A DNA stretch of 63,715 nucleotides, filler included, from Collodictyon triciliatum (GCA_043381765.1; 6 parts of 6 records of this genome joined end to end with filler, not necessarily neighbours in it), one strand, 5' to 3'. Counted from the whole stretch's first letter, positions 100 to 60,176 are shown. Notes: generated by a model from the sequence alone, not told the origin. Translations and numbers: made by a program.

Positions 100-3000
100 G
101 TATATTCTTGCTAATCATTTGTTGAATATCCTCCTTCACCACAGAATTGTGCCTGCTTCCTGAGCGATCTCGAGTCCATATGGACAAGGCGTCAAAGAGA
201 GACTGAGTTTCTGGTTATTTTAAATGTATATTAAAAAATAAGACGGATTTCTTTAATTGTGTATAAAAGAAAAAACAGAAAATTGTATTGGCTTTGCAAT
301 CGATGCTTTGTAAATGAAATTACCCAACAGGGGTTCCGTGTGAAGTCGTACCCAAAACTGTGCATTCTCCCAACTGATGTGCGACTTTATGAACACCTAC
401 TCAATCAAATAGTCATGTATATAAATTAGAAAAAGTGTATCAATCCAAAATTAAAAATGTAAATCCTAATATCAACACAAATAATAAAAGCACTAGTATT
501 CGAATGTTTTTCGTAAGTTGAAAATTTATATATCATACTAGAAATGGAAATGTTGATGTTATGTCATCAGAGGTAAATATTGCAGCAACTTCCAAAACAT
601 ATTTCAAGAGCCCAAATGGAGCATTTTTGGAATCCTCATCAAGTATTTCGAGAATTAGATTCAAAGTGTCAGCAAGTTGGTACAAAGACTCTGGGGGCAG
701 GATGTGCAAGTCATTCTATTTTAAACCAGAAAATATTTTAATTCGCGTAAAGTATAGTTATGCTTTCCCACGCGAGACATTTTTTCCTTTTTCTGTTTTT
801 GGTTTGTTTTTTTAGTTTTTTTTTAGTTGTTGTTTTAGTTTGTTTTAATTTGTTGTTTTAGTTTGTTGTTTAGTTGTTTGGTTTGCTGTTTAGTTTGTTT
901 TTTAGTTGTTTGGTTTGTTGTTTAGTTTGTTTTTTAGTTGTTTGGTTTGTTGTTTTAGTTTGTTGTTTTAGTTTGTTGTTTTAGTTTGTTTTTTAGTTTG
1001 TTTTTTAGTTTGTTTTTTAGTTTGTTTTTTAGTTTGTTTTTTAGTTTGTTTTTTAGTTTGTTTTTTAGTTTGTTTTTTGGTTTCTTTTCTTTGGAATAGA
1101 GTCTTGTGGTATTATAAAGAGGCATTACTATTCGAGTAATTCATACTCTTTTCGAAGCACGAACTAACGAGCTTAAGTAATACTCTGTATACTTGCTAAT
1201 TTTAAATATTTCACTAATATTTGTATTTAAGTTAGTAATTTTTGTAAATAAAAAATTAGATTGTGTGTGTGTGTTGTTTCCATATGGCGTAGAATGTTTG
1301 TTGCATCTTTTTGTTTCTTTCTTTGTTGTCATAAGGGTGAAATAGGCCAATAAAAACGTACGATAATTGCTCGAATCTTTCCAAGGGAATGCGGTTGTTG
1401 ATAAACAATCTCCCTATTGTATCTCGAAGGACTTCTAGTTTTGTAATATGGTCATCTTCATCTAACGTATCAGATACACGGGAATCATTTTCGGTGGTGG
1501 ATACCTGTTGGCATAAAAAGGATAAGTAAAATCTACATAGCATAAAAGACTTCATGGTTTATTTATCTTATCATCCCCTCTTATTTGAGCGAGATGGTAA
1601 GTGATGTATAGTATACTTTAAAAAAAAAACAATCAATCCGATATATTTCAGCTTACCCCCTCCAATGAGGGGGAAATGGTTCAACTTACCTCCTGAATAG
1701 CCCATGGATTTTCTACAAGGGAGTCATCCAAGGCTGTAAGGCGCGTATAAGTATATCCTGTTTAAAAGTTTTAATTCCATAGGCTTTAAGATTTGAACAA
1801 ATTGGCGATTGTAGTCGTGATATAGTTTTTTTTCCTTTATTCGATTCAAAGGTAGTCGTGATATAGTTAAAATTATATGTTTCCTTGTAAGTATTGATGC
1901 TGAATCATAATGAAACGAAAGTGCACATAATATGTTCGATATTCCAGCCTCTGGCTATTAAACCTATTTCGGATGTATATTCTATCGGTTCAATATTAAG
2001 GAAGGATGATTCAGTCGATACAGGTAAATGAACATCCTCAAAATTCCTGCTTAAGATGTCCTCCTTGGTAGGTCGGTGGAGCTGGCTATCCAAGAAACAT
2101 GCAAATAGCTGTGTTTGCAGAAAAGATAACCAGAACTAAAAATAAATTTATTAAAAAAATGAGACATTGACAATCGAAATCAAGTAATGATGACAAACAA
2201 TCTGCCTCACAAACTACTTTTTCACGCTACCAAAGAAAAGAAAAGAAAAGAAAAGGGAAGGAACGAAGGAACGAAGGAACGAAGGAAGCTAAAATAAAAA
2301 ATGACATGGGATATTGTCTTCATCAGATAGTATATTTGCATATCGATATGACCTCATCAGTAGCTCGACCAGATAAGAATTTCGGTTCGTTGAATACAAT
2401 CACAGGATTTTCTCCATCCTCCAAGTATATTAAGCAGTCTCTATAGTCTTTCAGCATATCCTGGTATGCATTAAAAAATGCCTTTTTTATCGTTGTGAAA
2501 ATTTCCTGTGGGCGTGTTGGAGTGACGTATTCCTATTATATTATTTAAAATTATCATGAGAATAAGAAGGCAATTATATTCAAATAAAAATAAATCATCA
2601 TAGAATGTGAATTTTATATGCTTTAGAACGTGAGACAAAAAAAAAAAGAAAAGAAAAGAAACCCTGGCCTCGTATCTCCACCGAAGCTCATCGTATCTGT
2701 TCAGATAAGTCGAAGTTAGGGGAATAACCACTTCGCGTAGTCGTGTTTGGATGTATACAGGCAATGGTGGTGCAGGATTTGAGCTGTAGACTTTATTTTC
2801 ATCCAACATCACGACCGTTGCCTGTATCAACAAGAAAAATTAAAAACGTTGTTTCCTTCGGGCTGCAAATTGCGAATAAAGTTCTTGACAAAAATTGGTA
2901 GGATAAATTGTAAAGTAATTTTAACATGCAGAACGGAAAGGAAGAAAAATTAACTATGAAAGACTTCATTTCATTTTATTTTGTTTGAAAAGGATGAATG

Positions 3001-5500
3001 GCACTTGAGATATATGTTTCACTAAGTCGGAAAGGAAATTTTCGATAAGCCATATTATATAGGTCGTAATGATTCTAATATGAAAGCTAAAAAAAAAAAA
3101 AAAAAATACCCCAACATCGAGGATTGTGTGCAATGATATTTGTGACAGTAATTCGTCCGATATACCCATGATATATGAACCAGGTGCATGTATATAATCT
3201 GCTAGTTCGGATGGAAGGCATGGAATATAAGCCTGTTTCCACTGGAATGGATAAATCAACTGAAGGAGTGTCTGCAATCATGTATATGGATAAGTTATGG
3301 ATTATGCGAAAGTACGTCTCAAGTTTTTTTAAAAAAAAAAGGCAAGCATTTATAAATCTTTTTTCTGTGGAATGCTTTTGAGAGCTAAGAATAAAAACAA
3401 CAAATGTAGTTCAAAATGATTGCCTCAATAATTGTCGTCTGTATTCCCATTTGAGAAGAACAGAATACGATTTTATTTTCAGTCAATATAGTTGCAATAA
3501 CTTTCATAACGTTCCCAAATGTCAAACTTTTGAACAATGGCCACCAAGAAAACTGTCGCATAAAATTAAAATATAAGTAATTATCAACTAACAATACGTA
3601 TGATATATGGAGCATGGAGAACAGAGTTTGTCGTATTTGAATAGCGCTTGCTTCACCTGGATATTTTCCTCGTTCGATATGTTGGGTCCGTATAATACAT
3701 AATCATTGAACATTATTTGCATCTGAGTCGTTAGTTCAGGAGCTGGCAATCGACCAACAGACGACATGATAAAGGATTCTAAAGGGAAGTCTGGAAGCCT
3801 GGGTATATGCTTAATGACCTAATTGGACATTATTCACCCAAATGAATCTTTTTTGTTATTGAATTGATTTGGAAAAAAATAAATTGTATATATGGATATG
3901 TTTTTTCAATCAAATTGGACTATAAATGTGTCTAGTATGTTTTTACATGGTAGGTATGCGTTGAAAAATCTCTGAGTATGTTGAGTATTAAGTGGCGCGA
4001 TAGATAGCAAATTGCTCGAGGAATATATCTAGTCTTGGTCTATTCAAGTAAATCAGTTTCTGGTAATAGGGGACTTGATGAAAAAGGGAATTTTTTGTAT
4101 TTAACGTTTTATATTGAGAATATCATAACATCTGTTGTTTCCAACCTGAAACCTGTCTGTTCCAGGTATTTCATGTCTCTTGCTCAATACTTCGGCCTCA
4201 TCAGAAGTCTAGAAAGTATATATGAAGAGAATCATTTGAAAATAATACAAAATCATGTTTCATATCCACCATCCTGCACAAAATTGAAAGGAAGAATAAA
4301 AAAAATAAAAAAAATCATGTTTGAAACAGCCATTATTGCTCGGGGAGCAAACGAAAGTATAATATTCATCATTCTAGATATGTTTTTTAAGTAGCGTGAA
4401 CGCTTGAAAGCAAATAAATGCATTTTAAGTCAATACAGATGAAGAAAAACCTGATTATCTGTATGAATATGGATTTGTTCAGTATAAACAACAACAGAAC
4501 CATATAAACGATTCCCATCCACATCCGTTAGCACAAAGAAATGGGAAACCGGGTCTTTTTCTTTTTCAAGTAAAGACATCCCCATAGGAAAGCAAAACTG
4601 TAAATATAGTCATTATTTTATCTGCATGCAAACGTAAGAAACCATATGGAAATTAAATGAGTGATGTTTTTAGTAAAATAATGAATTCAAAAAACGAAAC
4701 ACTATGACTCTGACATTTGTGTGGTGCGTATAATTGTATTATACGAACCATATGAACAAAAGGTGGGAGCTCACAGTCAGGATAATCATCGGAAGGATAC
4801 CGGTATAAAGTCTTTGGTGTGACAATTCCATCACCTGTTTTTTTTTTATTATTATTATTATCATCATCATTATTCTAGACAATAAATGAGAAAAATTGCT
4901 TTTCAGCTAAATGAATAGGAGAAAGCAACATGTTTTTTTTTCGTGTCTTTATGAGCGTGCTTAAGAGAAGAAAGAAAATCTGAGATTGATAGGAGAAAGC
5001 AACATGAATAGATAGGAAATGACGGAGTTGTAGCTTCTATTATTGAGTGAAGAAAAATAAAGGGATGTACTGATTAGACTTCTAGTTAGTACCATTCGGA
5101 GGAATGGTGTCTGCCCCAACTAAAACGAAAAACTCAATCAACCTCGAAGAGGGAACTTTGGCTTCTTCAAAGCTTGGGGCACCCTTAAAAGTGGAGAAGT
5201 TGAAGTAAGAGAAGACGAGATAAGACGATAAAAGAATAACCCATTGAAAGGAAAAATAGAATAAACATACAAGAGCGTAAGACGTAAGCAGAAATAAAAT
5301 ATGAAGAAATAAAAAAAAATATTCCAAAAGGAAAAGAAAAAAAAAAGAAAAAAGAAAACGGAGCGATTCTTGGCAAATCATCTAATTCTTTTTGTCTATA
5401 TGTACATATTCGCTGGGACACTTGCGAATGTGGACTTTTTACGAAGCTCAGCAACAAGCAAAGGAGAAAAGCTTGGCGCGCAAACCTGAATGACGAGCAT
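100..5500 (-). CDS. DENN-domain Rab GEF with SBF2/MADD-like C-terminal helical region (multi-exon, 3' end runs off the window)
   Basis: Spliced exons read LIEFFVLVG, LYRYPSDDYPDCELPPFVHM|FCFPMG, HFFVLTDVDGNRLYG (uDENN), ILTENKIVFCS, LIYPFQWKQAYIPCLP (cDENN), TQLFACFLD (dDENN) and SHISWENAQFWVRL (SBF2-like). The start at 5500 (MLVIQ|GT) is tentative. Confidence 0.88.
810..1080. repeat. Degenerate (TTTGTTTTTTAG)n minisatellite in a DENN intron
   Basis: Tandem 11-12-mers visible directly, becoming more homogeneous toward 1080. Confidence 0.9.
1811..1868 (-). mobile_element. Family A micro-retroposon with perfect 17-bp TSD
   Basis: GTAGTCGTGATATAGTT (1811-1827), then T6-CCTTTATTCGATTCAAAG (1828-1851), then GTAGTCGTGATATAGTT (1852-1868). 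Confidence 0.93.
4249..4322 (+). mobile_element. Family B micro-retroposon with 12-bp TSD
   Basis: AAAATCATGTTT flanks CATATCCACCATCCTGCACAAAATTGAAAGGAAGAATAAA-An. The core is identical to the copy at 6.9 kb. Confidence 0.88.
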
Positions 5501-5880
5501 TATTCAAGCCTACTTCGCTCGGCCCCTGGTGCGCCAGTTCTTTAAGTCAACCAAATAAGAAAGGAAAATAGGACTACTTGGAAGTTCGCTGAGTTATAGC
5601 AACATAGGCCGGACACAGAGTAGAGAAATGTGTAATATGTCTACGAACACTAACGATACAGACTCTTTTTTTTTTCTTTTTTCTTTTTTGCTCTTTTTTT
5701 GTTTCGTTTCGTTTTGTTTCGTTTNNNNNNNNNNNNNNNNNNNNNNNNNNNNNNNNNNNNNNNNNNNNNNNNNNNNNNNNNNNNNNNNNNNNNNNNNNNN
5801 NNNNNNNNNNNNNNNNNNGTATAGAGAGGGAGGGGANNNNNNNNNNNNNNNNNNNNNNNNNNNNNNNNNNNNNNNNNNNN

Positions 5881-5892
5881 TTAATTAATTAA
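5881..5892. other. Artificial contig linker TTAATTAATTAA inside N runs (also 21761-21772, 36402-36413, 54490-54501, 61727-61738)
   Basis: The same 12-mer with stops in all six frames sits between N runs five times. Confidence 0.97.
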
Positions 5893-6161
5893 NNNNNNNN
5901 NNNNNNNNNNNNNNNNNNNNNNNNNNNNNNNNNNNNTTTTTTTTTTTTTTCCCCCCTTCGCTCCAACCTCGCCATCGCAACCAACACAGCAACTGTCAAA
6001 CATGACGTGAGCGATGCAAAAGCACCAGCGAATGATGCCCAAATCTGATGGCTTTAATAATACGCAAAGAGTTATCCAGCGACAGCTCCAGATTATATTA
6101 TGAAATCAGCTGGCTTGTGATGATTGAGAGAAATAGTAACCTTTACCCCATTTATGTTTTC

Positions 6162-6226
<65 letters not shown>

Positions 6227-6409
6227 CTCTCTTTGTTCTTCAGTCTTTGTTCAGACACGCTCCACGAGAACGTTTGGAGGGAATTGAAGAGAACGAAAAG
6301 ACACTTTTTATATTGTCTGCATATTCACCTCCCTCTGCTTTCTTCCTGAAATTTTTTTTCTGACAAGTTTTTTTCTGATGCTTCAAAAGCGCAGCCTTTA
6401 AGTCGACGC

Positions 6410-8443: not shown

Positions 8444-9777
8444 ATGCTCAACAAAATGCGATTGTGCTGCTTTTGCGATTCTCAACGCGGACTTCGCAAG
8501 TTGCAGCCAGTTCTACTTCGCCCGGCGCTGGTGCGAAGACCCGTGCAAGGAAGCCGCATGCAAGTCTGCCTGAGCGGACAGTATTTTTGTATGGTGTCGA
8601 GCAAGTCGTTTATTTTTTTTTCCTTTATTCGATTCAAAGCGAGCAAGTCGTTTATAACAAGAACAAGTCCCACAGGCTCACAGATGCGCTCGCCTCCTTC
8701 TTGAAAGCAAACAAACTTTGGGAAGAGTCCATCCAACTGCGCTTACTGGACAGCGAAGGCCTTTGCCTGGTCGCCTTCCGCACTGCAGAAAACGCCCGAA
8801 AACTTCTAGAGCTGAAGCAGGTAAGTCCGATCAATATTACGATCAGCTTCAGCCGAAGTAAACCAACAGAGACCTTGGTGATGCTCTGCCAACTACCGCT
8901 GGACGTGTGGCCGCAACTGCTTCATGATATGCTGAAGCCGTTCAGACCGACCCACGTGTGAAAATCAAAAAGACAAAGGCTTCTTCCCAGACACGGCTGT
9001 GGTAAAGCTTCTTTGTCACAATAATAAACTCTACAAAAAGTTTACGGTCATGGGTAAAAAGTGTCCAAACTGCATCCTCAAAGAGCGTCCGCCAGCCGAG
9101 AACAACGAACGACTAGAAAAAGCCCCAGCAAAAGAATACACCCACCAAGCAGACAAGCAGCAACGGGGTCAAGGAAGCCAAGGCCAGGCAACAGCAAAGT
9201 TCGTAAGACTCACAGCAGATACGTGCATACAGCGACAGCGATAATGACATGGAAGGAAATACCGGTTCCTTTTCAGAATCCTCGCACTCGAGCCCTTCAC
9301 CAACACTGGACAAGCCCGCACATCGCAAGACCCAAGAGTAGAGTATCCATTCATCTGCCAGTCTGGAACAAGACTAGAAACCCAATTTAAAGCTCAATCA
9401 TTCGACTAGAATCGCCCGTTAGTGGAGCTCCTTTGTCATGAATTCATTTCATCAACCCTTTTCCTATACATTTATGACTATGGGTTGATTGACGTCATAC
9501 AGATATCTTCCCTCAACGACTTCCTTCTCCACCTTCGAGTTCTTCATCCTTCAGACCATGTGAGAGGGCACGTGTGAAAGAGGCAGTGAAATACATTACA
9601 TCGCATCTTGCCTCATACAAGCACAAGACTCGGACCACAGGTCAACCCGCCGGTTGCAATTCCTGATAATCGACTACTTCGCCGCCCGGCCTCAAGTAGC
9701 GTCCATGCAAAGATGCATAGCGTAACAAAGCCAAAACCTGCTCCATCTAGAACTGAATTAAACAAAAGATTAAAAGG
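8444..9777 (+). mobile_element. Degenerate, internally deleted non-LTR retroelement related to family B (ORF1-like RRM remnant plus ORF C-terminus and 3' UTR, no RT seen)
   Basis: Intronless broken ORF 8464-9244 with RRM-like pattern (LCLVAFRTAENARKLL, LCQLPLDV...MLKPF) and an in-frame TGA at 8959. 9560-9750 aligns by eye with the minus-strand family B copy at 49.8-50.07 kb (shared CAAGACTC, TGCAATTCCTGAT, GTAGCGTCCA, CAAAGCCAAA). The ORF1 identity is inference. Confidence 0.65.
8598..8655 (-). mobile_element. Family A micro-retroposon with perfect 16-bp TSD, nested in-frame in the older element
   Basis: CGAGCAAGTCGTTTAT, T8-CCTTTATTCGATTCAAAG, CGAGCAAGTCGTTTAT. Net 42 nt, translated as EQVVY-FFFLYSIQS-EQVVY. 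Confidence 0.93.
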
Positions 9778-13089: not shown

Positions 13090-13392
13090 GGATGAACAGC
13101 CTGCTGAAACACGCGCGCATTCTTCGCTACTCTGGCCGCAAGCGAAGAGAGATGTGGGAATGTGTCGTGCGATATCTCCCACAGCATATCCAACCCCTGC
13201 TGCTCACGCAACCAATCAACCAGTTGGGTCGCCCACCTGACCAACTCGCTATCACTGATTTCTTTCCAGTGCTACCCTCTCCACGGTAGTGTCTTCTCCT
13301 ACTCGCGTTTGCTCTCTACCATGCGCACCTATCTCGCCCCTTTGTATGGCATAACCTTGCTGCACTTTGAATCGAATAAAGGGGGAAAAAAA
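13090..13392 (+). mobile_element. Longer 5'-truncated family A non-LTR copy (ORF C-terminus, ~100-nt 3' UTR, A tail)
   Basis: ORF end ...LRYSGRKRREMW...GRPPDQLAITDFFPVLPSPR*. Terminus CTTTGAATCGAATAAAGGGGG-A7. 13210-13390 aligns with 46549-46716. Confidence 0.8.
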
Positions 13393-13912
13393 GTCCTGAT
13401 AGCTGAGATGCGCCTCTGGGAGTGATTCTTATTGGCGTTTGCCAGAAGGTCTTGGCCAAAGCAAGGGCGCAACCCAACCCACGAAGTCGAATAAAGGAAT
13501 GCTATATTTTTAAACTAAAACCCGTTAAGATACAGAACTTATAGCTGACGTGGGGATTCGCCCGGTCTGTGGTTTGGTTTGGTTTGGTTTGGTTGTTGTC
13601 TTTCAAGTATCGTAGCGGCTCTTAGAAACCTCTCTAAACAATTAACAAAATTTCATGCATAATACAAGTAAAGGAACAAAAACGCCGCCTCCCTTCACAA
13701 TCCCATTATGGTGGCTTCGAAAAGGAGCAAAGGAATAGGGAAAGGTAGCAACCAATGAAAAGCTGGGTACAGCGTCTGAGTGTGGTGGGTTAACAAAAAT
13801 GAGTTAAAAGAATCAACCTACTCGGTGGTTTTTTGGCCCAACGCCGGGCTTTTCTCGAGTATTGATGTGTTTTGCGCTCTTCTTGGTACCAGGGCCAGGG
13901 AAATGACAGCGA

Positions 13913-13969
13913 CGCGCTGGGTGAATTATTTTTTTTCCTTTATTCGATTCAAAGCGCGCTGGATGAGTT
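13913..13969 (-). mobile_element. Family A micro-retroposon, 15-bp TSD with 2 mismatches
   Basis: CGCGCTGGGTGAATT / CGCGCTGGATGAGTT flank A-T8-CCTTTATTCGATTCAAAG. Confidence 0.88.
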
Positions 13970-21602: not shown

Positions 21603-21716
<114 letters not shown>

Positions 21717-26566: not shown

Positions 26567-29500
26567 TTATGTCTTGCGGAAGCTTCCGGGAGTCTGCGCA
26601 AAGGAGCGCGATACGAGCGAGTTTCAGAGATAAAAAGACAGAGTCGAGCCACCCAACAGAATAAGGGTAGGAAAAATATTGCCACGTTTTCTTTGACAAA
26701 GAAGGGCAAGATGTAAGAGAAAAAAAAACCTTTTGCGCCTGTTTTCGCTGCTTCTCCATCTCTGCTTCAATATCTTTCAGACATTTCTGTCGGTGGATTG
26801 TTTTTGAGAGAAGGAAAAGAAAAAGGAAAAGAAAAAGTAGCGGAAGCGTCAACAACTGCGAACATGATTTGTTTAAATAATGTAACTAAAAAAAATCTCC
26901 CAAACCGAAAAGGAAATCCTGAAGTTGTTCAGGGTGCCGAAAAAGTCCTCTACAGATGATTTGGCCTCCTCTCCAAACATCAGCAGCATCTGTAGATAGA
27001 GCAAAATCATTAGCGCTGATATTAAAGGCCTCATTTGTCGGTAAAATCAAACCTCTTCGCAACTTTTTTTCGTTTCTGCCAGGTTTTGGGAAATATCGTC
27101 CTTCTTGTTGACAGCTTCGGCATGGAATTCCTGCAAATAAATATTGATTTTTTGATTTGCAGATAGGGTAATACCCAACGCACAAAGCATGGTGGATGAT
27201 GCAGTTACGCCTTTGTTTCTTCGCGGTCGATTAGCATTCCCTTGCGCATATTTTTGAGAAGAGAAAAATATCCGCCTTTCTGCAAACTGTCATGGCTTCA
27301 AAAAAAAAAAATACATAAATGGTGAACCCACGTGAATAACAGCCTTGTAAACCCTTTCAGACTGCTCTGTGCACGCGTCGATTTCGGTCTGTAGCTGCGC
27401 GAGTCCCTTGTTAATAGCCCCCAACTCCGATTCGATTGTTGATATCATCACTGCAGGGATATTTGATTTGAAACTAAGCGCTTCTGAAGCAGATGATGTG
27501 AAATGCTTATAAATTTTGTGGTTGAGGGATTCAAAACCTTTGGTGGCGGTTTCTATAACAATCCAATTCTCGCTAAAGGTTAGGAGCTCCGGAGAATTCT
27601 TTGTTACCCATTTAACCAAATAATGGAGCAATGTTGTCCGATTATCACTACCCTTGGTATCCATCATCTAAAAAGGTGGTAATGAGTCAAGTCTTCATGC
27701 ACAGAACAGGAAAATTTTTTTCTTTATTTCCTTTTCTTTTTTCCCTCTTAATTCCCTAATTCCTTTGGATAACACATCAGCCCCACATATTATTTTATAT
27801 TAGTAACAGATTGAAACCTTCACGAGACTCTCAATCTTGAAGCCCTGTGCGTTTCCTCTAAACGATGTTCCATTCAAAAAGTTTCCAAAATAAAGAACAA
27901 CCTAGATGAATGCAAATCGATGCATAGAATTCAGTCTAATTCTCCCTTTTTTTCCCTTTTTTTTTCTCGCTCAGAACTTCAGTTTTGGTTCACAGTTTAG
28001 GCAAGCATGACTTGTTCCTGTTTGCAATTATGATCAAGTATATATTAATGTCGAGTATTTCTTACAGCCATCAAGCTTTTGAACTGTGCAGATTGGCAAA
28101 CAATCTTCGAGGCTTGAAGGAGAGTATTTATGTCCTAGTTGATTGATTTTACAAAGGCTTACAAAATGAGAAGCGATAGTTGGTGGTAATAGATCTTTTT
28201 GAATCCACATTCTTTGAAATTAATTAAGGCTCAGCAGCCAAACATATTCCTACATTGGATACTTCAAGAATAGATTGATCAAAAGTTCTCTTGAACATCC
28301 ATGATTCCAGCCGACTTTTGAGCCGGGGTACTTTGATTACTTCCATCATAAACTTTTCCGCGTTTCCAAGCTCATCCATGTCCCCACTGTAATTACTAAG
28401 CATCTCAATCTGCCAACATTTCGTGGTTTGTGAGAGTTTATTCTCCGAAAATGAATAAAAAAAATTAACAAAATAAAAACTTGTCAGTCGCAAATATGGT
28501 AAGGATTGTCTTTGAATCAAAGAAAGGGAAAAAAATATGGTAAGGTCTCTATTGACCTCTTCTGGGGTGGGGGACTGCGTAATCAAAGCCTTCAGGTCCT
28601 CCACAGAGAGCTTCTTTTCATCGAGGTCAATTATTGCTTGGTAGACATGCTGGTGAGACATCTTAAATCTTGATATCATAATTCCTTCGACATAAAAATA
28701 GAGCAAAATTTAGTTGATGGAGTTATCGGATGTAGAGGATTAAGACGTCACTTTATTCAAAATCATTATAAAAAAAGGATGTCTCTTACCAACATTGTTT
28801 GCACGCTTCATATCAAGTAAAGAAACAGCCTGAGATTTGCTAGGTGACGAGGGTGCTTTGGCTGGTTGAAATGTTGGTCGATTTTTTTATTTCCTTTCTT
28901 CTCTTTTTTCGTTTTTTTATTTAAAAAAAAAGGGCATCTCATCTATGTACAGTCATGTTTTGGAATTGGTGGAGATTACCTTCCACAACTTTGCTCCTAA
29001 AATTGTCCTCTAGGTCCGAAAAGTCGACACTTATATGGTCGGCTTTGATATTTCCCCAAAAAGTTTTATTTACCCTTCCGGGAGGAATCTTGGACTATGT
29101 TTCGGATTGAAAAGAAATCCATTCACGAAATCGAAGTAAAAAATACAGATGAGTACCGTCTTCTTCTGGTTAAACACTTGTCTCATCAGAAGCAGAGGAT
29201 CAGCAGTGGTTTTGCATGAGAATATGCGCCATACCCAATTGAATTGCTTCATCGGGACCGATGGTTTCGGTACAGGTGCAAATAATGATGCTGTTGGGAA
29301 GTCAATAAGCGAGGGGTCGTACGAATGTGCATGAAGCAATCTCTTGAATAAAGAGTGTTCTTACCACTAGAGCCACTCTGGTTCAAAGGCAAGGGTGGAC
29401 CAGACATCCCGGGTGGAGGTGGCGGTGCCGGACCAGATTTGAGTCCAAAGGGAGGCGGAGGCGGTGGAGGACCAGTCATTCCTGGTGGAGGCGGAGGTGG

Positions 29501-37653: not shown

Positions 37654-40600
37654 TCAGTGGGTTCCTGTTTGGCGCTGAACCAGCTGCGAATAGAATCCAC
37701 CTTGCTTGAGAAGCTCTTCGTGTCGGCCTTCCTCCACGACACATCCCTGTTGCAACACGATAATCTTGTCCGCGTTGCGCACGGTGGAGAGACGATGCGC
37801 AATCACAATTGTGGTGCGGTTTTGCATCGCTCGCTCAAGGGCAGCTTGGACCTGTGGGACAAGGCATGAGAGACAATCTAGCGTAGAACGGAAATAATTG
37901 ATGAAATATCATGAGCGCGAGTGAAAAAAGAAACGTTAAAAATTGTCAATCTAGGATGAGAAACGCACGATGGCTTCGCTTTCGGTATCCAGGGCACTCG
38001 TAGCTTCATCCAGGAGGAGGATAGGTGGATTCTTTAGCACAGCACGGGCGATGGCAATACGTTGCTTCTGCCCACCAGATAGTTGTGTCCCACGCTCGCC
38101 CACGTATGTGTTAAATCTGTAATTGTGTAATCGATTTGTGTGAATCGGCCTCCGTAATTACTGTCACTCAAAATATGACTGGTCTTACTTGTCTGGCAGG
38201 CGAGATATGAACTCATATGCATTTGCTATGCGTGCTGCTTCCTGTATTGATGGATTATTTCATGTTATAGAAACATGAGATAATGGCCCCTTCGAAAAAG
38301 AAATAAAAATATGCAGAAAAATGATGATGAGAGAAAATACCTCGATTTGAGCATCCGTCGCTGATGCGACACCATATGCGATATTGTCTTTGATACTGCA
38401 AGCAAACAAAACTGGCTCCTGACTGACAAGGCCCAATTGTCTGCGAAGCCACTCTGTGTTTATCTTGCTGATATCAATACCGTCCAAAGTAATGGTGCCT
38501 GAATGGGGAAGGTAAAATCTCTCCAAAAGCGAAATCTAAGAGATTTATCATTTTCATTATTAATGTTAAAAAAAAGTTGTTTAAAAAAACCTATTCTGTC
38601 GCTTACTTCTCGTATCGCTTTTGATATTTTATAGGAATCGAATAGGAGCATTTAAATCCAATTTTATGTTCAATATTTTGATAGTATTTTATATAACCCC
38701 TTACGACACTACTCTTTCCACTCCCACTACTTCCCACAAGAGCAACAGTCTTCCCAGCTGGAACCTATATTTGGTAATACACCGCTCCAATAAGTCCTCG
38801 GGCACACATTTTTAAAGATAGACAGGGTTATTAGAGCCCATAAGTGGGTATAATGATAATTATTATTCTATTTTTTGGCGACGAAAACAGGGATACTACA
38901 AATGACAGACAGACCGAAATGTCAACGCCTTTGAATATAGGAATGTCAGGTCGAGTTGGGTAGGAAAAGCTGACATTGTGAAAGTTGACATTGCCAGTAA
39001 TACTAGAAGGATGTATTCCGTCTGGGGACATCGATTCAACCTTAGACTTTGTGTCTATAATCTTAAAGATTTCACGAGTAGCCATTTGAGTCTTCGCGAG
39101 GTCTGGCAAGGTAGATGATATCTACAATTGAATAATCCTTTGGTTAGAATATCATTCTCTAGGTTATCGCTACATAAAACCATATTAGATACCTCGCATG
39201 GTACTGGAAAATTATGATATTAAACGACATTGACAAAACCATTCATAGATCAGTAAGAGGAACCTGGCCACTCGCCATCGTGGAAAAGACGATGGCAAAG
39301 ACGACTCTCATAACATCATCGAAATCCATTTCACCCTTGTCGATAAGGACAGAGCCATACCTGCCCATTTAAAAATCGAAAAAAAACGATATAAAATTGA
39401 TGTTGAAATACACTTTGGTATTCCATCATAAATCATTGCGTCCTTTCTTCTGAAATAGAGTAGTCGAGGATGACAAATAAATACCAACCAGAATGACAAT
39501 GAATAGGAAAAGAACATAATTCCTTGCGAAACACCAAAACCTATCCCACTAAAGTGAGATTTCTTAACTCCAGAACGAAGAGGTTCGACGAGCCGTCTCT
39601 TAAAGTCGAAAAATGGTAGAAAATGGCTATGGTGAATGGAACTTGCTAGGGAACCGAATTATTTCAAGGAATATTACCTGGTATTCCTCAAACATGCGGT
39701 CCTCTAAGGTGAACGAACAAATTGTTCTGACTCCAGAAATGGACTTTTGGATAAATGAGTCGTCTTAGAGAAATCTTTAATATCATAGCAGGGCTTATAA
39801 TTATAGTAATATTCATAATCATCATCATAATAATAATACCTGGCTGGTAATTTCACCGGCATTTTCAAAAGCTTTGGTAGCCTCCTTCGCAAAGCCTCCC
39901 AAAAAGGCCATTTGGAGATAGCCAGAGAGGAAGATGACAGGTGCGATAGATAGGATGACTAGAGTCAACTCCCAACCAGAGTAAAAGGCAATACCCAAAC
40001 CAGCTCCTATAGTCACCAGATTCTGCACAGACATTTGAATCCTACATAAAAATTGTCACATCATTATTCTTTAAAAGCATTATTTTATCTTTATTTATCA
40101 TTATCTATTTTTATAACTTGTATCCTATTGATAAAATAAGGAGAAAATACCATTTAAGTCAAACATAATATATCTGTATTCACCTCATCACGTTTCCTGA
40201 TACAAGAGTGGCATCAGACGCTAGCTTTGTAGAGAGCTTTCCTGTGGTGTGGGCGGGCATATCAAAGTAACTAAGAAAATTGTCGTTAATAATATGATAC
40301 TATCACATTTATTCAAGGATCGATTATGAAAATAAGTAAAATAACGTGATTGTGTAGATTTCTTTGAATCGAACAAAGGGGAAAAAACATGATTCTGTAG
40401 ATTTGTCTTTTTTTTTTTTTGTGGATAAATACTGAATAAATTAGTGAATAGCAAAAAAAAAAAAAAATGAGCAAGTACCCAATATCCTGATTTAGAATCG
40501 AGGCGAAGCTCATGCGCCTTAATTTTCTCGTTAGACGCTCAGAGACAATACCGAAGGATGTTCCTCGGAATGTTTCGAACGAGATAGATGCAACTCCAAG

Positions 40601-43600
40601 ACAAATGAACACGATAGCCCACGTCCTCGCCCCGTCGCTGATTCATTTCATTTTAGTTTTTATATTATGTGCCACAAAATTAGCTGTGGGGCCAAGAAAA
40701 CCTCGCCGGGAAATTAATTCAAACAAATACAACATGCTTCTATTATATTACAGAAATATAACAAAGTTATCAACGCCAAATGTGTGACGCTTACCGAATT
40801 TTGTCGTCGGTTGACTCATAAAATATACGGACCATCTGAGTGAATGTCAAGGAATATGCTGGCATCACACACCCATTTGCAGCTGCGTTCAGAACACCGA
40901 ATATTGCCCAGCCCATATCGTTTTTAATCAAGTCAAATATTCTAGACATAGGAACGGCAGGTGCATCCTTTTCCACATACTCCTCCTTCTGTTTTTAATT
41001 TTGTTAAGGGACGTAGGTATCCTACGTGAGCTTTTTTTTTTAACATACCTTATCTTCCTCGGCGCGACCTTCTCGACTCGGGGTTTCTTTGTGAGACTCC
41101 TTAAAAACTTCTTTCCGAACGGCAATCTATTTATAACAAAGGTCATTTATCAAACATGTTTTTTAAAAAAGTGATCTTTGAATCGAATAAAGGAAAAAAG
41201 AAAAAAGCGATGGTCATAATAACGATGCGATTGTAATTAAATTGCTTGAAACATACAGAGGAAACGGGTTCTTTCTCATGCGCCTCATCAGATCCCTTGG
41301 TCTGTCGAACAACTAAATTATAATAGTTCCCCATCATGGCCATCAACTGCTCATGTCTCCCAGATTCAACGATGGAGCCTTTATTCAGCACTATAATATT
41401 GTCACACCCTCGGACAGTACTCAGGCGATGCGCAATAATTACGGTCGTTCTTTGGGCCATTGCGCTTTCCAAGGCTGCTTGAACCTTAATTTTTTTCTTA
41501 TATCTCTCCAAAATTCTTTTTTTTTTTTTTACAACTATAGTAAATGAAAAGGGTTTAATGAAGTTTGATGGTAATAAAAAAAAAATACCAATGCTTCACT
41601 TTCGGTGTCCAGTCGCTTGTAGCCTCGTCCAGCAATAGGATAGGTGGATTCTTCAGGATAGCCCTTGCAATTGCAAATCTTTGCTTTTGTCCACCAGAAA
41701 GTTGAACACCGCGCTCACCAACCTGGGTATTGTACCTTATGGAATGTTCTAGTTAATTAAAAATGCGACTGCTTCTTCATTTGCCTATATAGTACGGCAG
41801 AGAAGATATCAAGAGGTCCATGCAATTACCCGTCAGGAAGCTTTGAGATGAACTCATGAGCGTTTGCAATTTTGGCAGCATTAAAAACTTCTTCCTGGAT
41901 TATATGTTTTCGGTTAGTTGAAAAAAGAAACCTAACCTCATTTTTTTAGTTCATTAACATCAAATTGTACCTCAGTTGCATTCACTCTCCCATTCATTAT
42001 ATTATCCTTAATGGAGCCAACAAAAAGAATGGGCTCCTGATGATATTTTGGGAAAAAAATAGGCACATTAGATTATATATTTTCAGATTTGATAACCATC
42101 TTGAGAAAAATAGATAAAACTGTACGAATCGAACCTGACTGACTAAACCAATGTGTTGTCGAAGCCATTTGAGATTGTAATCCTTAATATTGATTCCATC
42201 GATGGTAATAATCCCACCTTCAGGGTCATAGAAACGCTCTAATAATGCGACCTTATGCGACATTTGGAAAGAAAAGAGCCATAAACATCAGGTCAGTGGT
42301 GCGTGGTTCTTCGGTTCCAAACCATCCTTTCAAATATTCTATCCCATGAAAAAGACAAAAATTATACAAAAATAAAAATCATACAACGCTGCTTTTCCCA
42401 CTTCCAGTGCTGCCAACAAGTGCAACTTTTTGGCCGGATGGAATACTAATGTCCAACCCATCAAAAATTGGCATGTCAGGTCGTGATGGGTAGCGGAATT
42501 TCACACCTGAAAGCCTGACATTTCCCTGCTTAATCGGGGTTCTGCATACGTTACAAATATAATATATAAGATACTATATCAGTAACTCCATAACTTTTTT
42601 TAATCTTAGTATTCCTGAACTTTGGAGGTTTTTTCCAAAACGAAGATACATAGTCTACAATAAAATATGTGGTACTTAAGTCCCGAGGGAGATGAAGAGT
42701 CGATGCTGGGAACTCGGTCAATCAAATTATGCACTTTCTTGGCTGCAACTCTTCCATTAGCAATCACACCAAGATTTGGAGAGCCTTGTCCAATCGCCAT
42801 AGCCCCCATTAAAACCGAAAAAAATACTGCCACAACATCACCACCTAAGGAGTGATTGACAGAAAGTAGAATTATTGATTTTTCTGGATAATAGTTTCAC
42901 TATTCATACAATCATTTATATTGACTCTAGAGTTGAAATATTAGACGGGTTTTTGGAAGAAACAAATTTTATGAAAAAAAAAACATAGAAAAATATTTTT
43001 AGGTCTTACCAGTCATAGGCTCTCCAGTCCGAGGACTTTCCTCTCCATCAATAATCAATTCAGCACCATACCTAACACCCGAAAAAAGGTTTCAGTGAAT
43101 ATCATATTTTCACTTAAAAAAAGGTACCAAAGATGTCAAACGCAATTAAAAGTATATGGCACAAACCAGAAGGTTAGGGAGTATGAACCGAACAAAATCA
43201 GCATGGTTAGCCCCAAACTGATACCAGTATATATCCCCTTCTTGATTCCGATGACCTCGGTTTCAGAGAGCTTATTATCATACTTTTCAATCTCCTTCTT
43301 TTCACCAGCAAACGATGCAACGGTGCGGACGCACGATATGATTTCCTCAGCTATTCCCCCAGCCTGGATATGTATTTTGAGACTTTGTTTTTATTCTTAT
43401 CTGCATCACTTAAGAGTTGAACATCATGTATGGATCCTCTGAAATTGTTTCATAAAACAGAAAGGATTACCCCAGCATACGCAGCCTGTGACCTCGTAGC
43501 CAGCTCTCCAAACATTTTCGCCCAGATTCCTCCGGATAAGGCAAGAAGAGGAGCCACCGAAATGATAATCAAGGTCAGCTGCCAGCCCTGGATTTTTTTA

Positions 43601-44951: not shown

Positions 44952-46099
44952 CCTACTGATTTATTTTAACTTATGATATGAGAATCTGGGCTTAAGAAAA
45001 ATAGGATATCGACTAAAAATTAAAATTTTTAAAAATACATTATGAATGATACAAACGCTGAAAAAGATAAAGAGGAGGCAAGAAAGACAGACGTATGAGT
45101 ATTTATGTAGTGGGCAAAGGAGAAAAAGAACTCTGATTAGCTACCACATCACTGTAAATAAAATTTTAAAAAACGCTGCACATCTGTAGTATGTTGTCAG
45201 CTCTCTGAAAACTAAAAGAACATAGATGAATCGTTGTCAAAGTTTCGTATGAAGGCCAGACAACTTACTTTGAATCACTTGCATAGGCTCCATAGGATTG
45301 ATGTCCATCAGCGAGTTCTTTCAAGAGCGGCTGAGAGGGCGATGTAGCCATCTGTCACGAAGAGGATTTAAGTGGCATTATGTCAAACCCACATCCTTTT
45401 TTGCTTGTGCCTTTTCCCTTTCATCAACCTCGGTAGTCGGTGCTCAAATCGATCGACTTCTCTGATGCTTTTTTTTTGTCCGGTTTGATTATTTTAATTG
45501 AAGTGTTCGACTGCAAACTTTCATAAAGGCTGGATGGTCACTAATTCATTATAATTCATGACAACGACTTAAAGCTATGACCACAAGAACTTGGACACAC
45601 GGTATTCTTTGAATCAATGGCAGCAGGATAGGTGTCGATAGGGTTACCCACGCTGACAGGGCATACCGTACTAATTTTACTGTGATTTTGTTCTTTCACA
45701 CATAATTTCCCTTCTTGCGTGTTTTGATTTTTGCCTTTGACTCGAATAAATAGAATAAAAAATTGTTTGCATTGTTGTATTGTAAACTACATATTATGGA
45801 GTTAACGATACAACACGCAATCATTTAGTTGTCAAACCCAGCGCGTTGTTCTGTTTTTCTCACAGATTTTATTAAACTTTCTGAACTTACACCGCATTAT
45901 GTGAATGGGGCGCAAAAAGCTCACGATTGGCATTAGATTTGATTTCTGGGTTTTTTTTTTTTCAATTTTTTTTTACTAAAAAAAAAATACAAGATTTATT
46001 TGAAAAGGGTTCAATATTTTGGCACCCAGGGCAAAAATCTGGTGTCAGTGTCTGGCATCTAGTTGGATTCACTTTTCTTTTCATCCCCAAACGCCCGAC

Positions 46100-46331: not shown

Positions 46332-46533
46332 GCAGGTGATTGAGTAATTCCTTATTTCTTGCGCCGTCCCAATCCCATGCTCTCATATTCCCAAAGAATA
46401 GTCAAGTCCCTGCATGAATCGTCAGTGCGACATGGGCTATGGTTCAATGCAAATGTAAGTCAGAGTATTGCGTCTGGACTCTCATTTATGAAGTGGGTTT
46501 GCGAACCAAGCCCCTGTTATCCGCATGAATTAG

Positions 46534-46731
46534 ATTTACAATGGTGTACCAATCAGCCAGTTGGGACGCCCGCCCGACCAACTCACTATCACTGACTTCT
46601 TTCTGGTGCTAGCTTCCCCACAATTGTGTCTTCTCCTATTCGCGTTTGCTCTCTATGTCGCTCCCTTTTTATGACACAACCTCGCTGAACTTTGAATTGA
46701 ATAAAGGAAAGAAAAAATTTACAATGGCGCA
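46534..46731 (+). mobile_element. ~170-bp 5'-truncated family A copy with 15-bp TSD
   Basis: ATTTACAATGGTGTA / ATTTACAATGGCGCA flanks. The body aligns with 13210-13390 and encodes QPVGRPPDQLTITDFF-like peptide. It ends CTTTGAATTGAATAAAGG-An. Confidence 0.88.
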
Positions 46732-54322: not shown

Positions 54323-54564
54323 GTAATTATTATGCTTATTTAAATCACATTTTTCAAAAAAAAAAAAAAAAAAAAAAAAAGAAACCCAAAAAAAAAAAAA
54401 CCCCCAACACAAAAAAAAAAAACAAAGAATTAATATAAAAAAAAANNNNNNNNNNNNNNNNNNNNNNNNNNNNNNNNNNNNNNNNNNNNTTAATTAATTA
54501 ANNNNNNNNNNNNNNNNNNNNNNNNNNNNNNNNNNNNNNNNNNNNAAAAAAAAAAAAAAATAAA

Positions 54565-54620
<56 letters not shown>

Positions 54621-54818: not shown

Positions 54819-57800
54819 TTACCACTTGACTTGCTCTGATTGATTTTCCTTTTCCTCATTCCCACCAAAGCCGACGCAAAGTCGATGATGGAGGCGCACC
54901 CACAACTCTATATAAGCGCGCTCGGTCATATCTGGGAGGCGGTTGAACTTTCCTGCCAGGTCACAGACGGGGCCTTCAAGCTTTTCCACATCAGCTTTGG
55001 TCACTATGATGACTTCGTCGTCAGAGCCATCTGCTGTGCTGCTTTCCTGTTGATTGTCTCGTGTAACCCGCGGTTGCGATGGGCCTGCAATTGAAGATAC
55101 TTCCTCCCATTTATCAGGCACGATAATGCTAGTGGTGAAGTCTTTCATGGTTGGTATCAAAGCGTGAACGCCACCAGAGTCTTTTCTGTCATTTGTTAGC
55201 GTCCCTTCTCTGACTGAAAGTTCCTGTGCCGATGGATAAGTTTTTCGTGTGTCGTGACCGATGATAGTAACCACCTGACTCATCTTCACGGTTTTCGCTC
55301 CGTTGTGGTCGTTTTCTGCGGTGGATTTCTTTGTTGAGACCAGAGCAGATTGGGGATATGTATCTGGCTTTACTTGCTGAAAACGTATGTTTTGGGTGGT
55401 GTTGAAATACTCGTCATCTTCTTCGTTTTCATCATCTTCAAAAGTATACGAACTACTCGTGTCGCTACTACTCTCTTCAGATTCCAAAGCCTTCGGTTCA
55501 ATTCGGCCCTTAGCTGCCACTGTTAGCTTTGGAGGTGAATGCGCGGAGTTAGACAGTGTACTTGCGAATCCACCGTCTTTAATCCCTAATCGTGGGCTAT
55601 GTACAGCCACGGGTGCACGCATGATTTGCTTGGGGACGGATGATATATTTGGGCTTTGTATAGAAGAAAATGCAACGGAGCTCTCTTCGTTGTCAGAATC
55701 AACAAAGTCCTGTGTCTTAGCTGGATGTGTGGGTTTTGCGGGGGATTGTCCGTATGATAACTGTCTGAACAGCTTTGGGCTATCATCGAGTAATCTTTGA
55801 GGGGGTGAATGTGATAAATCTGACTCGTTCTTCATCGGCCTTGTACCCGAGCTAGGTAAGTTCGTGTCTCTGCGGATAGAATCTTGGCTGTCCGTATGGG
55901 TAGCCTGATAGAAAGTTTCAGATAGATTAAGCGAGTCCATTGTATTCAAAGTATTTGGTTTCCAAGGAGTCTGAAAAAAGCTCAAGACGCCCAAATCATC
56001 GTTATCACCTCCCTGTAGTAATTGCTTCAACAATCTCTCAGAGGCAGCATCATTTAATAAAGGCAGAAATATATTCATATGTGCTTTCCAGTCCGATACA
56101 CCAGAGTACTCCGCTGAAAGAAGAAAGTCGAGCGCTTCGAAAGTTACCGCAGGTAGTATTTGCAGGCAGAGCACGAGAGACGAGGAAAGTATGATGTGTT
56201 GCTGTTGATTAACGATTTGATATCCTTGTGCCAAAAGAGTAAAGTAGCTTAGGAGTAAATAGGGTTGTCTCATAGTAATCTCCTCACTCAAGGGTGGAAA
56301 TTCGGGTATGGAGCATGCCTTGATGAGAGAATGAAGCAAGCCCATGCCAGATGGGTCCCATAAAAGTTTTCTATAGGAGTCGTAGAATAGGAAAGATGCT
56401 GTGGGTGCGAGGGATTCGCAAGTAAACACTTTTGAGCATGAAGTTGGAAATAATAATCGTACGCATAATTGATCCATTATAAAGTCGCTTCCTGCTTGGG
56501 TATATCTCCAGTTCTTCGATGCAGCCAATCCAATATATTCATGCTCAGAGCAGGTGACATATAGAATTAGTCTTGGTGATATAGAAAATTCACTTTTTGA
56601 AGTGCTCTGATATGCCGCACCACAATATAATGTGTTCAAAAACCCTGACAAGGAGACTCCAGAAAACCACGAGCCATATCCAGCGTCTCGAAAGTCTTTC
56701 ACAATAAAGAGATAGCGCTCACTTATCAGTGAGTCTAACGCCCGAAATGTTTTCTTATCGGCCCAAATCTTTCCATTATCAAAATACAGTGGCATGCGAA
56801 TATATTCACCACAACTATCATACTCCAATCTGGTTTCTTCAATTAACCTATCTGATTCCAAGGTTTTATATGCTATTTCATCCATCCAATATAACTTGGC
56901 CTCCCCAAGAGACTCCTTTGTGACCTTGAGAAGAGGATTTCGGTTAATAAAGAACGATGCAAAAGATATTCCTCTATCTTTCAGAATGGACTCTTTGAAT
57001 CCAATTTCATTCGTAGCTTTGGTTATTTCATCTTTTTCAGATTTTTGGACGGACACGAATCCTGTGCAATCCTTTCCGGACATAGACCAGCCCAACAAAT
57101 GTGCATCGATATTAGTTTCTGATGTGATTTGAATAGGGAAAAGGTCATCGCCCATGGCCCACATTCTATGACCACTATAGTTTGACACTACAAAATTTCG
57201 TATGAAGTAGACTCTATTAGGATTCTATCCTTTATGAATGTTTTCGTAAAAATTAATATCACGAAGCCGATGTCTGTTTGTTTCAATGTTATATAATATA
57301 TATTCAAGAAAATGAATAACGGCATACGTAATTCTTTGGGCACTGCCTGAAGTCCGACCTCCAATACTCTTTTCAATTCTTCATCCTGTGCCAGATCTTT
57401 CGAAGTTTTTCCTTTGGTATCAGACAACATTTTCTGCGCGAGGAAAAAGTGAGATTTTTTTTTTATCAATAGCAGGAGGGGGTTTTGAGGAACAGAAGGT
57501 ATATGAAAGAGAACAATATTGAAGAAATCGTTCTAATTTTATTGATAAACTTCACATAGAAAAATTTCGAATACAACGAGATAAGGTGGAGTGGATGATT
57601 TGTAAAATAATAACATAATATTTTTTCGTTTATTCGATTCGAAGAATAATATAATTACAAAATAATAATAATTTTTACATCGGCACCAGCAGCTAAGAGA
57701 ATATGTACAAGTGCTGAGTGATTTTGATGGGCTGCAAAGTGAAGCGGTGTCCAATTGGTTCGGTCTGTTTGTGCGTTCACATCTGCACCGCGCGACAGAA

Positions 57801-58320: not shown

Positions 58321-58323
58321 AAA

Positions 58324-58419
<96 letters not shown>

Positions 58420-58973: not shown

Positions 58974-60176
58974 ATGGCCAAGCACCACCCCGATCTGATC
59001 ATGTGCCGCAAGCAACCGGGCATTGGTGGGCTTCGTATTCTTATATGAAGTTAATTCTTCCTTTCTCTTTTTTTCTCTTTTATCTCTTTTTTTCTCTTTT
59101 ATCTCTTTTTTTCTCTTTTCTCTCTTTTTTTCTCTTTTTTTTCTCTTTTTTTCTCTTTTTTTCTCTTTTTTTCTCTTTTATCTCTTTCTTTCATTTATCG
59201 TTCACCTAGCCGTCTTCTATAATATCTTCGCATGTGTTACACTTGCATTGACATAAAAAGGGATATGATAATGATTTGCTTGCATATTGACCTTATCCCA
59301 AAAACTATTCGTCATCACTATGTATTCTCTCCATAGCCATCGGTCGCCTCTGTGAAAAGTGTGAGTCCTACATATTTTTTTTCGACGCATGATATTCATG
59401 CGCACATAATTTTAAATATTTCAGAAACTGAACATATGAAACAACCCTGGTTCCTCCTCTGCTACAAAAATAACACTCTTAGAATTCTTTCCAACAAAAT
59501 AAATAGCTAGGCTGAATAAAAGAATTCATGTTGCTAGAATGTATTTTTACCTTTCCTTCTTTTTTTTACATTTTTTTTTTTTTTTTTGTAGTTGGCTACT
59601 CGTATCATTTGAGCAATCTCAGTATAGCATTTACATTAAACTTCACATAGGTGACGGAAAGTGTGTTGTTTGCGACTCGTATGTGCGACCCTGCACCTTG
59701 GTTCGTGTGTGTGATGAATGTAACTATGGCTCCTATCAAGGTTGCTTTCTTTTTCTTTCTTTTCTTTCTTCCTTTATTCGAAACAAAGTCCAAGGCTGCT
59801 TTATTTAAGTCTTTCGAGTGGAAGCTGTGAATGTGCCCATGATTTTGTAAAAATACGAAAGGCTATGTGATGGAATGAAACTGTCGTCACTCGAGCTCTG
59901 TAATTCATTCGTGATATGCTCTCTTCAAACATCTGTGTTTGATATGTTGATCTGTATTTTATTTTATTTTTTACATGACGAAATCATATCATATTCAAAT
60001 TAATGTCAGGTCGTTGTGTGATTTGTGGCGGCCCTGGAATATCCGATGCTTACTACTGCAAAGAATGCACTGTCCAAGAGAAGGACCGCGATGGATGCCC
60101 AAAGATTATCAACATCGGCACATCCCGAACAGACCTCTTTTACGAACGCAAAAAGTACGGTTTCAAACCGCGCTGA
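58974..60176 (+). CDS. PHF5A: PHD finger-like protein 5A (SF3b subunit Rds3), 4 coding exons
   Basis: [75 protein letters not shown]...[14 protein letters not shown]. Confidence 0.97.
59735..59806 (-). mobile_element. Family A micro-retroposon whose TSD duplicated the PHF5A exon 3 donor
   Basis: ATCAAGGTTGCTTTCTTT / TCCAAGGCTGCTTTATTT flank a T-rich tail plus CCTTTATTCGAAACAAAG. Confidence 0.75.

Follow-up and report, generated by a model that had tools for sequence, protein, structure and literature searches.

The truncation points of L1, a long interspersed nuclear element (LINE), are broadly distributed. Telomerase, with its template boundary element, is a reverse transcriptase (RT) whose copying is limited to a short defined stretch by a fixed boundary. 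Closer to L1, L1-clade LINEs were described with a conserved 3′-end sequence common to short interspersed nuclear elements (SINEs) (PMC3472496), and truncation hotspots were described for tailless tRNA and 5S rRNA retropseudogenes (PMC5322556). Hotspots have also been described for SVA. In limited full-text word searches of the literature, supplements not covered, the smallest SINE found was Platy-1, of about 100 bp (PMC4864456), and no description of an 18-nt, fixed-end LINE tail insertion was obtained. The subject here is family A, a set of very small insertions in a window of 63,715 nt (the whole stretch of DNA that was analysed, filler included) from Collodictyon triciliatum (GCA_043381765.1). 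Each consists of one 18-nt sequence, CTTTGAATCGAATAAAGG or a close variant (the 18-mer), followed by an A-rich tail and flanked by a target-site duplication (TSD). The eight copies of this kind (micro copies) are very probably independent, extremely 5′-truncated insertions of one L1-like LINE family of the apurinic endonuclease (APE) type, ending at a fixed template boundary.

In anatomy the micro copies are ordinary 5′-truncated L1-type insertions. Like L1-clade copies made by target-primed reverse transcription (TPRT), they have poly(A), a TSD of 10-18 bp with an A-rich start and, in some, T-rich sequence before the TSD, and relatives of the parent protein carry APE, RT and zf-RVT domains. 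What differs is a single, extremely 3′-proximal end point: unlike L1 truncations, those of 8 of 10 copies fall on a single position, only 18 nt before the tail. Even young copies, again unlike L1, have very short tails (5-9 A).

Anatomy of the micro copies

The window was found to be made of at least 6 contigs, joined by five N44-TTAATTAATTAA-N44 linkers (Table 1). It was searched for the 18-mer with up to 3 mismatches, and the chance expectation was estimated from 100 dinucleotide-preserving shuffles. Eleven matches were obtained (5 exact, 2 with one mismatch, 3 with two and 1 with three), against a mean of 0.16 and a maximum of 2 in the shuffles, none of which reached 11. The matches formed three groups, namely eight micro copies, two long copies (AL1 and AL2) and one doubtful copy. 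Micro copies were present in 5 of the 6 contig pieces. The density of about one per 8 kb given in a first-pass annotation of the window is correct for 8 copies in 63.7 kb; since the window consists of joined contigs, it is a sample of several loci and not one cluster.

All eight micro copies had the same layout, with the 18-mer alone, 0-2 extra G, an A-rich tail and a flanking TSD. The tail measured 5-9 nt, and 24 nt, in degenerate form, in the oldest-looking copy (A8). The TSDs were direct repeats of 10-18 bp, and their host sequence was unrelated between copies. When the long copies were included, a poly(A) or A-rich tail lay directly 3′ of the element in all 10 tail-bearing copies, and a TSD of 10-18 bp was found in 9 of them, AL1 being the copy without one. 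The G-run before the tail varied among micro copies (2-5 G) and likewise among long copies. Micro copies ranged in apparent age from exact cores with perfect TSDs to cores with 2 mismatches and decayed TSDs. This range and the differing G-runs speak for insertion that recurred over time and drew on several sources. The core variants at 28510, 40362, 57627 and 59771 were all private. AATAAA followed by the A-run was present in the micro copies, each of which delivers this signal together with an A-run.

TSDs were scored against a control of 2956 random 26-nt pseudo-insertions, of which 1.7% scored 9 or more (95th percentile, 5). The eight micro copies, in coordinate order, scored 17, 16, 9, 13, 14, 8, 9 and 9. 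A score of at least 9 was therefore reached by 7/8 (probability of at least 7/8 at p = 0.017, about 3e-12). Taken singly, the TSDs at 41176, 57627 and 59771 were weak, being A-rich or AT-rich and containing mismatches. The TSD began with A in 9/9 cases and was preceded directly by at least two T in 3/9 (A1, A2 and A6), a sample too small for a consensus nick site. The first-pass annotation had listed eight short insertions with tails and direct repeats and had proposed a comparison with control flanks; both the excess of matches over shuffles and the TSD scores bear it out. Its reading of poly(A) and variable TSDs as marks of TPRT by an APE-type LINE is supported by the tails, the TSDs and the A-rich TSD start.

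Table 1. Coordinates of family A copies, other short retro-copies and contig linkers in the window
Feature	Position	Strand	Description
Micro copy A1	1811..1868	-	Core 1834-1851, exact; tail 1828-1833; TSD 1811-1827 and 1852-1868, 17/17; TTTT before TSD
Micro copy A2	8598..8655	-	Core 8622-8639, exact; A8 tail; TSD 8598-8613 and 8640-8655, 16/16; inside multi-copy element ~8450-9790
Micro copy A3	13913..13969	-	Core 13937-13954, exact; TSD 13/15
Micro copy A4	28492..28545	+	Core 28510-28527, 2 mismatches; TSD 13/13; 5 unmatched nt between TSD and core; one extra G before tail
Micro copy A5	40344..40404	+	Core 40362-40379, 1 mismatch; TSD 16/18; two extra G before tail
Micro copy A6	41165..41211	+	Core 41176-41193, exact; TSD 10/11, A-rich; TTTTTT before TSD
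Micro copy A7	57609..57655	-	Core 57627-57644, 2 mismatches; TSD 10/11 in AT-rich sequence, weak alone
Micro copy A8	59737..59800	-	Core 59771-59788, 2 mismatches; degenerate 24-nt A/G tail; TSD 9/10; 2 nt between TSD and core
Long copy AL1	13093..13393	+	~290 nt of LINE 3′ end (ORF2 end and ~80 nt of 3′ UTR), then 18-mer, GGG, A7; no TSD found
Long copy AL2	46534..46727	+	Element 46548-46717; ~160 nt of LINE 3′ end, 18-mer (1 mismatch) and tail; TSD 11/11; 3 unmatched nt at 5′ junction
Doubtful diverged copy	45735..45763	+	3 mismatches to 18-mer; no TSD within 450 nt
Family B copy B1	4249-4321	+	Core ~40 nt; TSD 12 nt; ends ...CCTGCACAAAATTGAAAGGAAGAATAAA-An
Family B copy B2	6881-6954	+	Core ~34 nt; TSD 18 nt; ends ...CCTGCACAAAATTGAAAGGAAGAATAAA-An
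Family B, diverged longer copy	~46270-46335	+	
Family C	~4915-5006	-	Single 47-nt core and A8; perfect 18-nt TSD; no other copy in window
Linkers	5725-5936, 21717-21816, 36358-36457, 54446-54545, 61683-61782		Contig ends in homopolymers or microsatellites
ORF2, open reading frame 2; UTR, untranslated region.

Common 5′ start

The first nucleotide was the C of CTTTG in 8/8 micro copies, with no scatter of 1-2 nt. The upstream TSD copy directly adjoined this C in 6/8; at the other two junctions, 5 unmatched nt (28510, A4) and 2 unmatched nt (59771, A8) lay between TSD and core. The start at nt 18 was common to 8/10 tail-bearing copies, the other two running 160-290 nt, and per-position termination was about 0.8 at nt 18 and very low elsewhere.

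Copies shorter than 18 nt were sought in the window as a TAAAGG-type suffix followed by at least 5 A. No copy of 6-17 nt was found; the family matches all carried the whole 18-mer, and the other matches were unrelated A-rich sequence. Copies between 18 and ~160 nt were sought by blastn with the long copies and with L011, a metagenome locus described below, and the window contained none. The common 5′ start is real and non-random, and the statement of the first-pass annotation that all short copies begin at the same nucleotide holds at 8/8. In control collections the exact 18-mer occurred 20 times in prokaryote genomes and once in viral genomes, close to chance, and 0/21 of these occurrences were followed by an A-run of at least 5. 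Copies of differing age and G-run share the end, so the cause of the common end lies in the family sequence or its protein and not in one odd master copy.

Parent LINE

The 18-mer was the 3′ terminus of AL1, AL2 and L011; the longer copies at 13.1-13.4 kb and 46.5-46.7 kb, previously reported to close with it, are thus confirmed and are LINE 3′ ends. L011 (1157 nt) was the only true family member among 43 loci from a metagenome scan for the tail pattern, the remaining loci being chance matches, largely upstream of ATG starts. Its minus strand was 94.7% identical to AL1 (13093-13393) over 301 nt and 80.9% identical to AL2 (46548-46717). L011 extended the family upstream by an open frame with one frameshift, ending ~90 nt before the tail. 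The frame matched zf-RVT (PF13966, E 1.5e-7, 32.4 bits against a curated cut-off of 27.5), the zinc-binding domain at the C-terminus of LINE reverse transcriptases. AL1, AL2 and L011 are therefore LINE 3′ ends, the ORF2 of this LINE bearing zf-RVT at its C-terminus, and the micro copies derive from the 3′ end of these longer copies.

Relatives of the L011 protein were collected by a profile-free HMMER search of 1.84 billion representatives. Fourteen were found, mostly short fragments, four of them (P0009-P0012) being 1226-1275 aa long; a shared-word search for homologous proteins of greater length gave none. Exo_endo_phos and RVT_1 were present in 4/4 of the long relatives and sub-threshold zf-RVT in 3/4. 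The best match of P0009 was human L1 ORF2p (E 3e-57), against 1e-23 for R2. The parent accordingly appears to be an L1-like, APE-type LINE, its APE and RT identity being read from distant relatives at 25-38% identity.

The last 11 nt of the 18-mer (TCGAATAAAGG) recurred exactly at 13486-13496 (+), ~100 nt downstream of AL1 and without poly(A); this stretch may be left over from an older related tail.

Empty site in contigs from other runs

Contigs from four runs were aligned to 6000-20000. No run shared more than 0.18 of the sampled words of 6000-15999. The DNA-bearing runs were freshwater metagenomes; runs X1 and X2 behaved as RNA, with five CT..AC joints in 6480-7807 and a GT..AG joint at 15386-15645. 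An X2 contig joined 8597 to 8640, skipping 42 nt that correspond to 16 nt of TSD, 8 A and the 18-nt core; 16 letters at the joint fit either side. A second X2 contig, with 8 differing letters just before, likewise resumed at 8640, and in two short X2 contigs the first TSD copy was followed at once by the sequence that lies beyond the second. At A2, therefore, 42 nt including a 16-bp duplication were added to pre-existing sequence. This empty site was seen for one of the three family A micro copies in the aligned stretch, A3 being almost without cover. The search for empty-site alleles in reads that the first-pass annotation had suggested was thus answered in part: contigs that lack A2 exist, and they are RNA-like contigs of a multi-copy element, probably paralogous.

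The multi-copy element that surrounds A2, at ~8450-9790 (+), was represented by many variant contigs, up to 11 at one listed place, with a summed depth of 600-1900; within X1 and X2, no other part of the aligned stretch had a higher summed depth. Its own end, at 9768-9784, resembles a diverged 18-mer without poly(A), and its relatives in X1 end in the tail of family B (see below).

The LINE family is itself multi-copy in the sampled organisms or samples, because loose ends before 13093 continued like the upstream sequence of L011 in 4/4 runs. It is also well represented in the RNA-like runs; the bin 13005-13471 had the second-highest summed depth in X1 and X2, about 1300.

RNA structure and other simple causes of the start

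The first-pass annotation had proposed, as a possible cause of the common start, a 5-bp terminal stem between CTT[T/C]G and TAAAG. This was not upheld: the 18-mer, alone or with its tail, had a minimum free energy of 0 kcal/mol, and 200/200 shuffles folded at least as well. Folds of the 3′ UTR had z-scores close to 0, and the three long copies together gave a consensus fold of -2.6 kcal/mol with 0 compensatory pairs, n = 3 being too few to judge conservation. A weak hairpin was predicted upstream of the 18-mer (-4 to -4.7 kcal/mol, z-scores -0.2 to +1.05), and the terminal AUAAAGG was predicted to pair over a long range with an upstream CCUUUGU, weakly and without covariation. No Rfam family was found in the window at the gathering threshold, and no tRNA gene was found in it by ARAGORN. 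A search of L011 at E up to 10 gave no ribozyme or tRNA-like match; its 4 matches were all lncRNA or snoRNA noise.

Microhomology at the junctions was rejected as the cause of the common start, the upstream flanks ending differently in each copy; where the TSD adjoins the core directly (6 copies), the junction lacked microhomology to the parent in at least 5. The start was also rejected as a splice acceptor, since in the long copies the C is preceded by CA or AA, and not by AG. The base at position -1 was A in 3/3 long copies.

Other short retro-copies

A scan for A-runs followed by a repeat of upstream sequence yielded two further families, B and C (Table 1). The parent of family B continues upstream, as judged from contigs of other runs. 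A fixed start with extra junction nucleotides was considered for family B and rejected, these nucleotides being part of the 18-nt TSD in B2 and parent sequence in B1. Very short retro-copies are therefore general in the window. Because families B and C differ in length and have no common start, the fixed end is specific to family A.

Cause of the boundary

Beyond the observed insertion anatomy, the derivation from LINE 3′ ends, the common start and the one empty site, we infer the order of the insertion steps and the cause of the boundary. The LINE ORF2 protein would nick an A/T-rich target and prime on the poly(A) end of an RNA carrying the family 3′ terminus. The last 18 nt would be copied exactly, with a stop at the junction of the 18-nt tail with the rest of the 3′ UTR, and the resulting cDNA of ~26 nt would be attached to the target on its upstream side, with a TSD of 10-18 bp as the outcome. 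The nt-18 boundary would terminate about 8 in 10 of the events, and the others would continue for 160-290 nt or more. The boundary is tentatively taken to be the physical end of the template, where the RT would run off the 5′ end. Such a template could be a 3′-terminal decay or cleavage fragment of the LINE transcript, bound by ORF2 protein and poly(A)-binding factors, and a polyadenylated RNA with its 5′ end at CUUUGAAUC would be implied. On the best reading the micro copies are dead on arrival, because 18 nt hold no promoter.

An RT that halts on a longer template is a doubtful but serious alternative. The full LINE RNA, or another long RNA, would be used, the enzyme would stop after nt 18 at an upstream stem-loop or at an ORF2 anchor, much as at the boundary element of telomerase, and the short cDNA would be resolved into an insertion. 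The weak hairpin is suitably placed, with its 3′ base at -1 in 13340-13392 and extending to include +1 in L011, so that in two long copies a structure of -4 kcal/mol ends at position -1/+1 of the 18-mer, which fits a pause. Families B and C are very short with variable ends, and a high general hazard of termination with one hotspot would be a simple account of all three families. L1-clade LINEs with a specific conserved 3′-end sequence have also been described (PMC3472496). Against a pause, the hairpin is weak, at the energies and z-scores given above, and disappears when the three long copies are folded as a consensus, in which covariation is absent; moreover 8/8 ends fall on one nucleotide, without a scatter of 1-2 nt. 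LINE RTs are processive and strand-displacing, which also counts against a roadblock. Run-off at a template end is slightly preferred to a pause because all ends agree to the single nucleotide and the structures are too weak to stop a LINE RT. The unmatched nucleotides at two junctions, and the lack of junction microhomology to the parent noted above, point the same way.

Site-specific processing of the LINE 3′ UTR could free the tail, by a ribozyme, by RNase P or Z acting on a tRNA-like fold or by small-RNA slicing, or an RT-blocking modification could lie at -1. The exact 5′ end and the A at position -1 in 3/3 long copies fit this account. It is nevertheless unlikely: the Rfam, ribozyme and tRNA-like searches and ARAGORN were all negative within the scopes stated above, loss of its own recognition tail would harm the LINE, and a dominant small-RNA slicing would hardly stay fixed from old to young copies. 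Somewhat less likely still is a self-propagating micro-retroposon, the stronger claim of the first-pass annotation, in which the 18-mer with poly(A) would be a sufficient recognition and template module for an RT with a built-in boundary, and micro copies would beget micro copies. Transcripts ending in an earlier micro copy, including read-through transcripts, would be polyadenylated at AATAAA and recopied for exactly 18 nt. The presence of AATAAA and an A-run in the copies, the occurrence of copies of differing age in 5/6 contig pieces and a boundary that appears intrinsic to the sequence, being common to copies with different G-runs, speak for it. However, no diagnostic mutation is common to the micro copies yet absent from the LINE copies, the variants at 28510, 40362, 57627 and 59771 being private. 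Host sequence between TSD and core never exceeds 2-5 nt, there is no promoter, and the LINE is abundant in the RNA-like runs and hence a sufficient source. That the pattern reflects chance, ascertainment bias or an assembly artefact, with ordinary random truncations or non-retroposed repeats behind it, can practically be dismissed. The initial search took full 18-mers only and the window is made of concatenated contigs, but the suffix search gave no shorter copies and blastn with the long copies no intermediates. The shuffles (0.16 against 11) and the TSD control (1.7%) are equally contrary to chance, independent runs carry the family and an empty site, and 0/21 prokaryote and viral 18-mers had a tail.

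Several points weigh against truncated LINE insertions ending at a template end as set out here. The sample comprises 10 tail-bearing copies in the window and L011. The family members in hand show the ORF2 C-terminus only, in a frameshifted copy, APE and RVT_1 being known from relatives, and the full-length relatives are ~25-38% identical over the shared part. The empty sites at A2 are probably paralogous and not allelic, because the host sequence at ~8450-9790 is itself multi-copy, and the single clean joint from 8597 to 8640 may be an RT template switch between the 16-nt repeats. Families B and C have variable lengths (~35, 40 and 47 nt); since they too are very short, early termination is general in the window, and the data would be accounted for just as well by a strong pause site in family A. 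The hairpin at -1/+1 belongs on the same side.

Comparison with known retroposons

The 18-mer resembles the 3′ tails of stringent-type LINEs (PMC3472496, PMC4176376) in being a short specific sequence directly before the tail, present in all members and by itself seemingly enough as a template. It differs from such tails in that no stable stem-loop is predicted in it: no stable conserved stem-loop lay by the tail, with 0 kcal/mol for the 18-mer and -2.6 kcal/mol for the three-copy fold (n = 3). The micro copies were rejected as SINEs because they lack a promoter-bearing head. A head derived from tRNA, 7SL, 5S or snRNA, with an internal promoter, is absent from an element of 18 nt, and no tRNA or Rfam family was found in the window. 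A 3′ tail in common with a partner LINE was found, since AL1, AL2 and L011 end in the 18-mer. Unlike LINE tails shared with SINEs, this tail had no partner SINE in the window that carries a small-RNA head.

The tailless retropseudogenes (PMC5322556) are likewise retroposed RNA fragments with ends piled at particular nucleotides, and they set a precedent for the insertion, by LINE machinery, of discrete RNA fragments or of ends that depend on structure. They differ in being without poly(A), in coming from small structured RNAs and in having hotspots in loops, whereas here polyadenylated LINE tails have a single end point and all copies carry A tails. Platy-1 (PMC4864456) is likewise a poly(A) retroposon of very small size that L1-type machinery mobilises; the copies here are ~five times shorter and lack a promoter-bearing head. 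The telomerase boundary element is an analogy only, in that an RT makes a short defined copy with a fixed stop; the likeness does not extend to a dedicated template RNA, repeat addition or a boundary helix.

Other features of the window

A minus-strand gene at 6284-8226 had five introns according to spliced contigs (6480-6599, 6730-6952, 7037-7117, 7259-7512 and 7622-7807). Family B copy B2 lies inside its second intron, antisense to the gene. At 15386-21124 (+), an intron (15386-15645, GT..AG) was found upstream of an open frame of 1825 aa with bacterial-type Ig, cadherin-like, DUF4114 and FG-GAP domains, an architecture that is unusual in eukaryotes. At 47106-49608 (-), adjacent open frames contained a protein kinase domain and leucine-rich repeats; the clusters closest to the kinase frame were mostly from Bacillariophyta. 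Judged from these clusters and the freshwater metagenomes alone, the host would probably be a freshwater diatom, although a second taxon check gave no usable hit.

Implications

If micro copies did propagate themselves, they would be the smallest known propagating retroposon and would spread AATAAA polyadenylation signals across the genome, in thousands of copies missed by repeat finders. If the spike at nt 18 holds genome-wide, most insertions of this LINE family are 26 nt long and have one exact end. The family would then offer a natural read-out of where and why TPRT ends, whether at a template end, a protein anchor or a structure, a step for which in vivo study is difficult. Standard repeat annotation would also miss a sizeable share of retroposition events because they are too short, and each escaped insertion would be a mutation carrying a polyadenylation signal.

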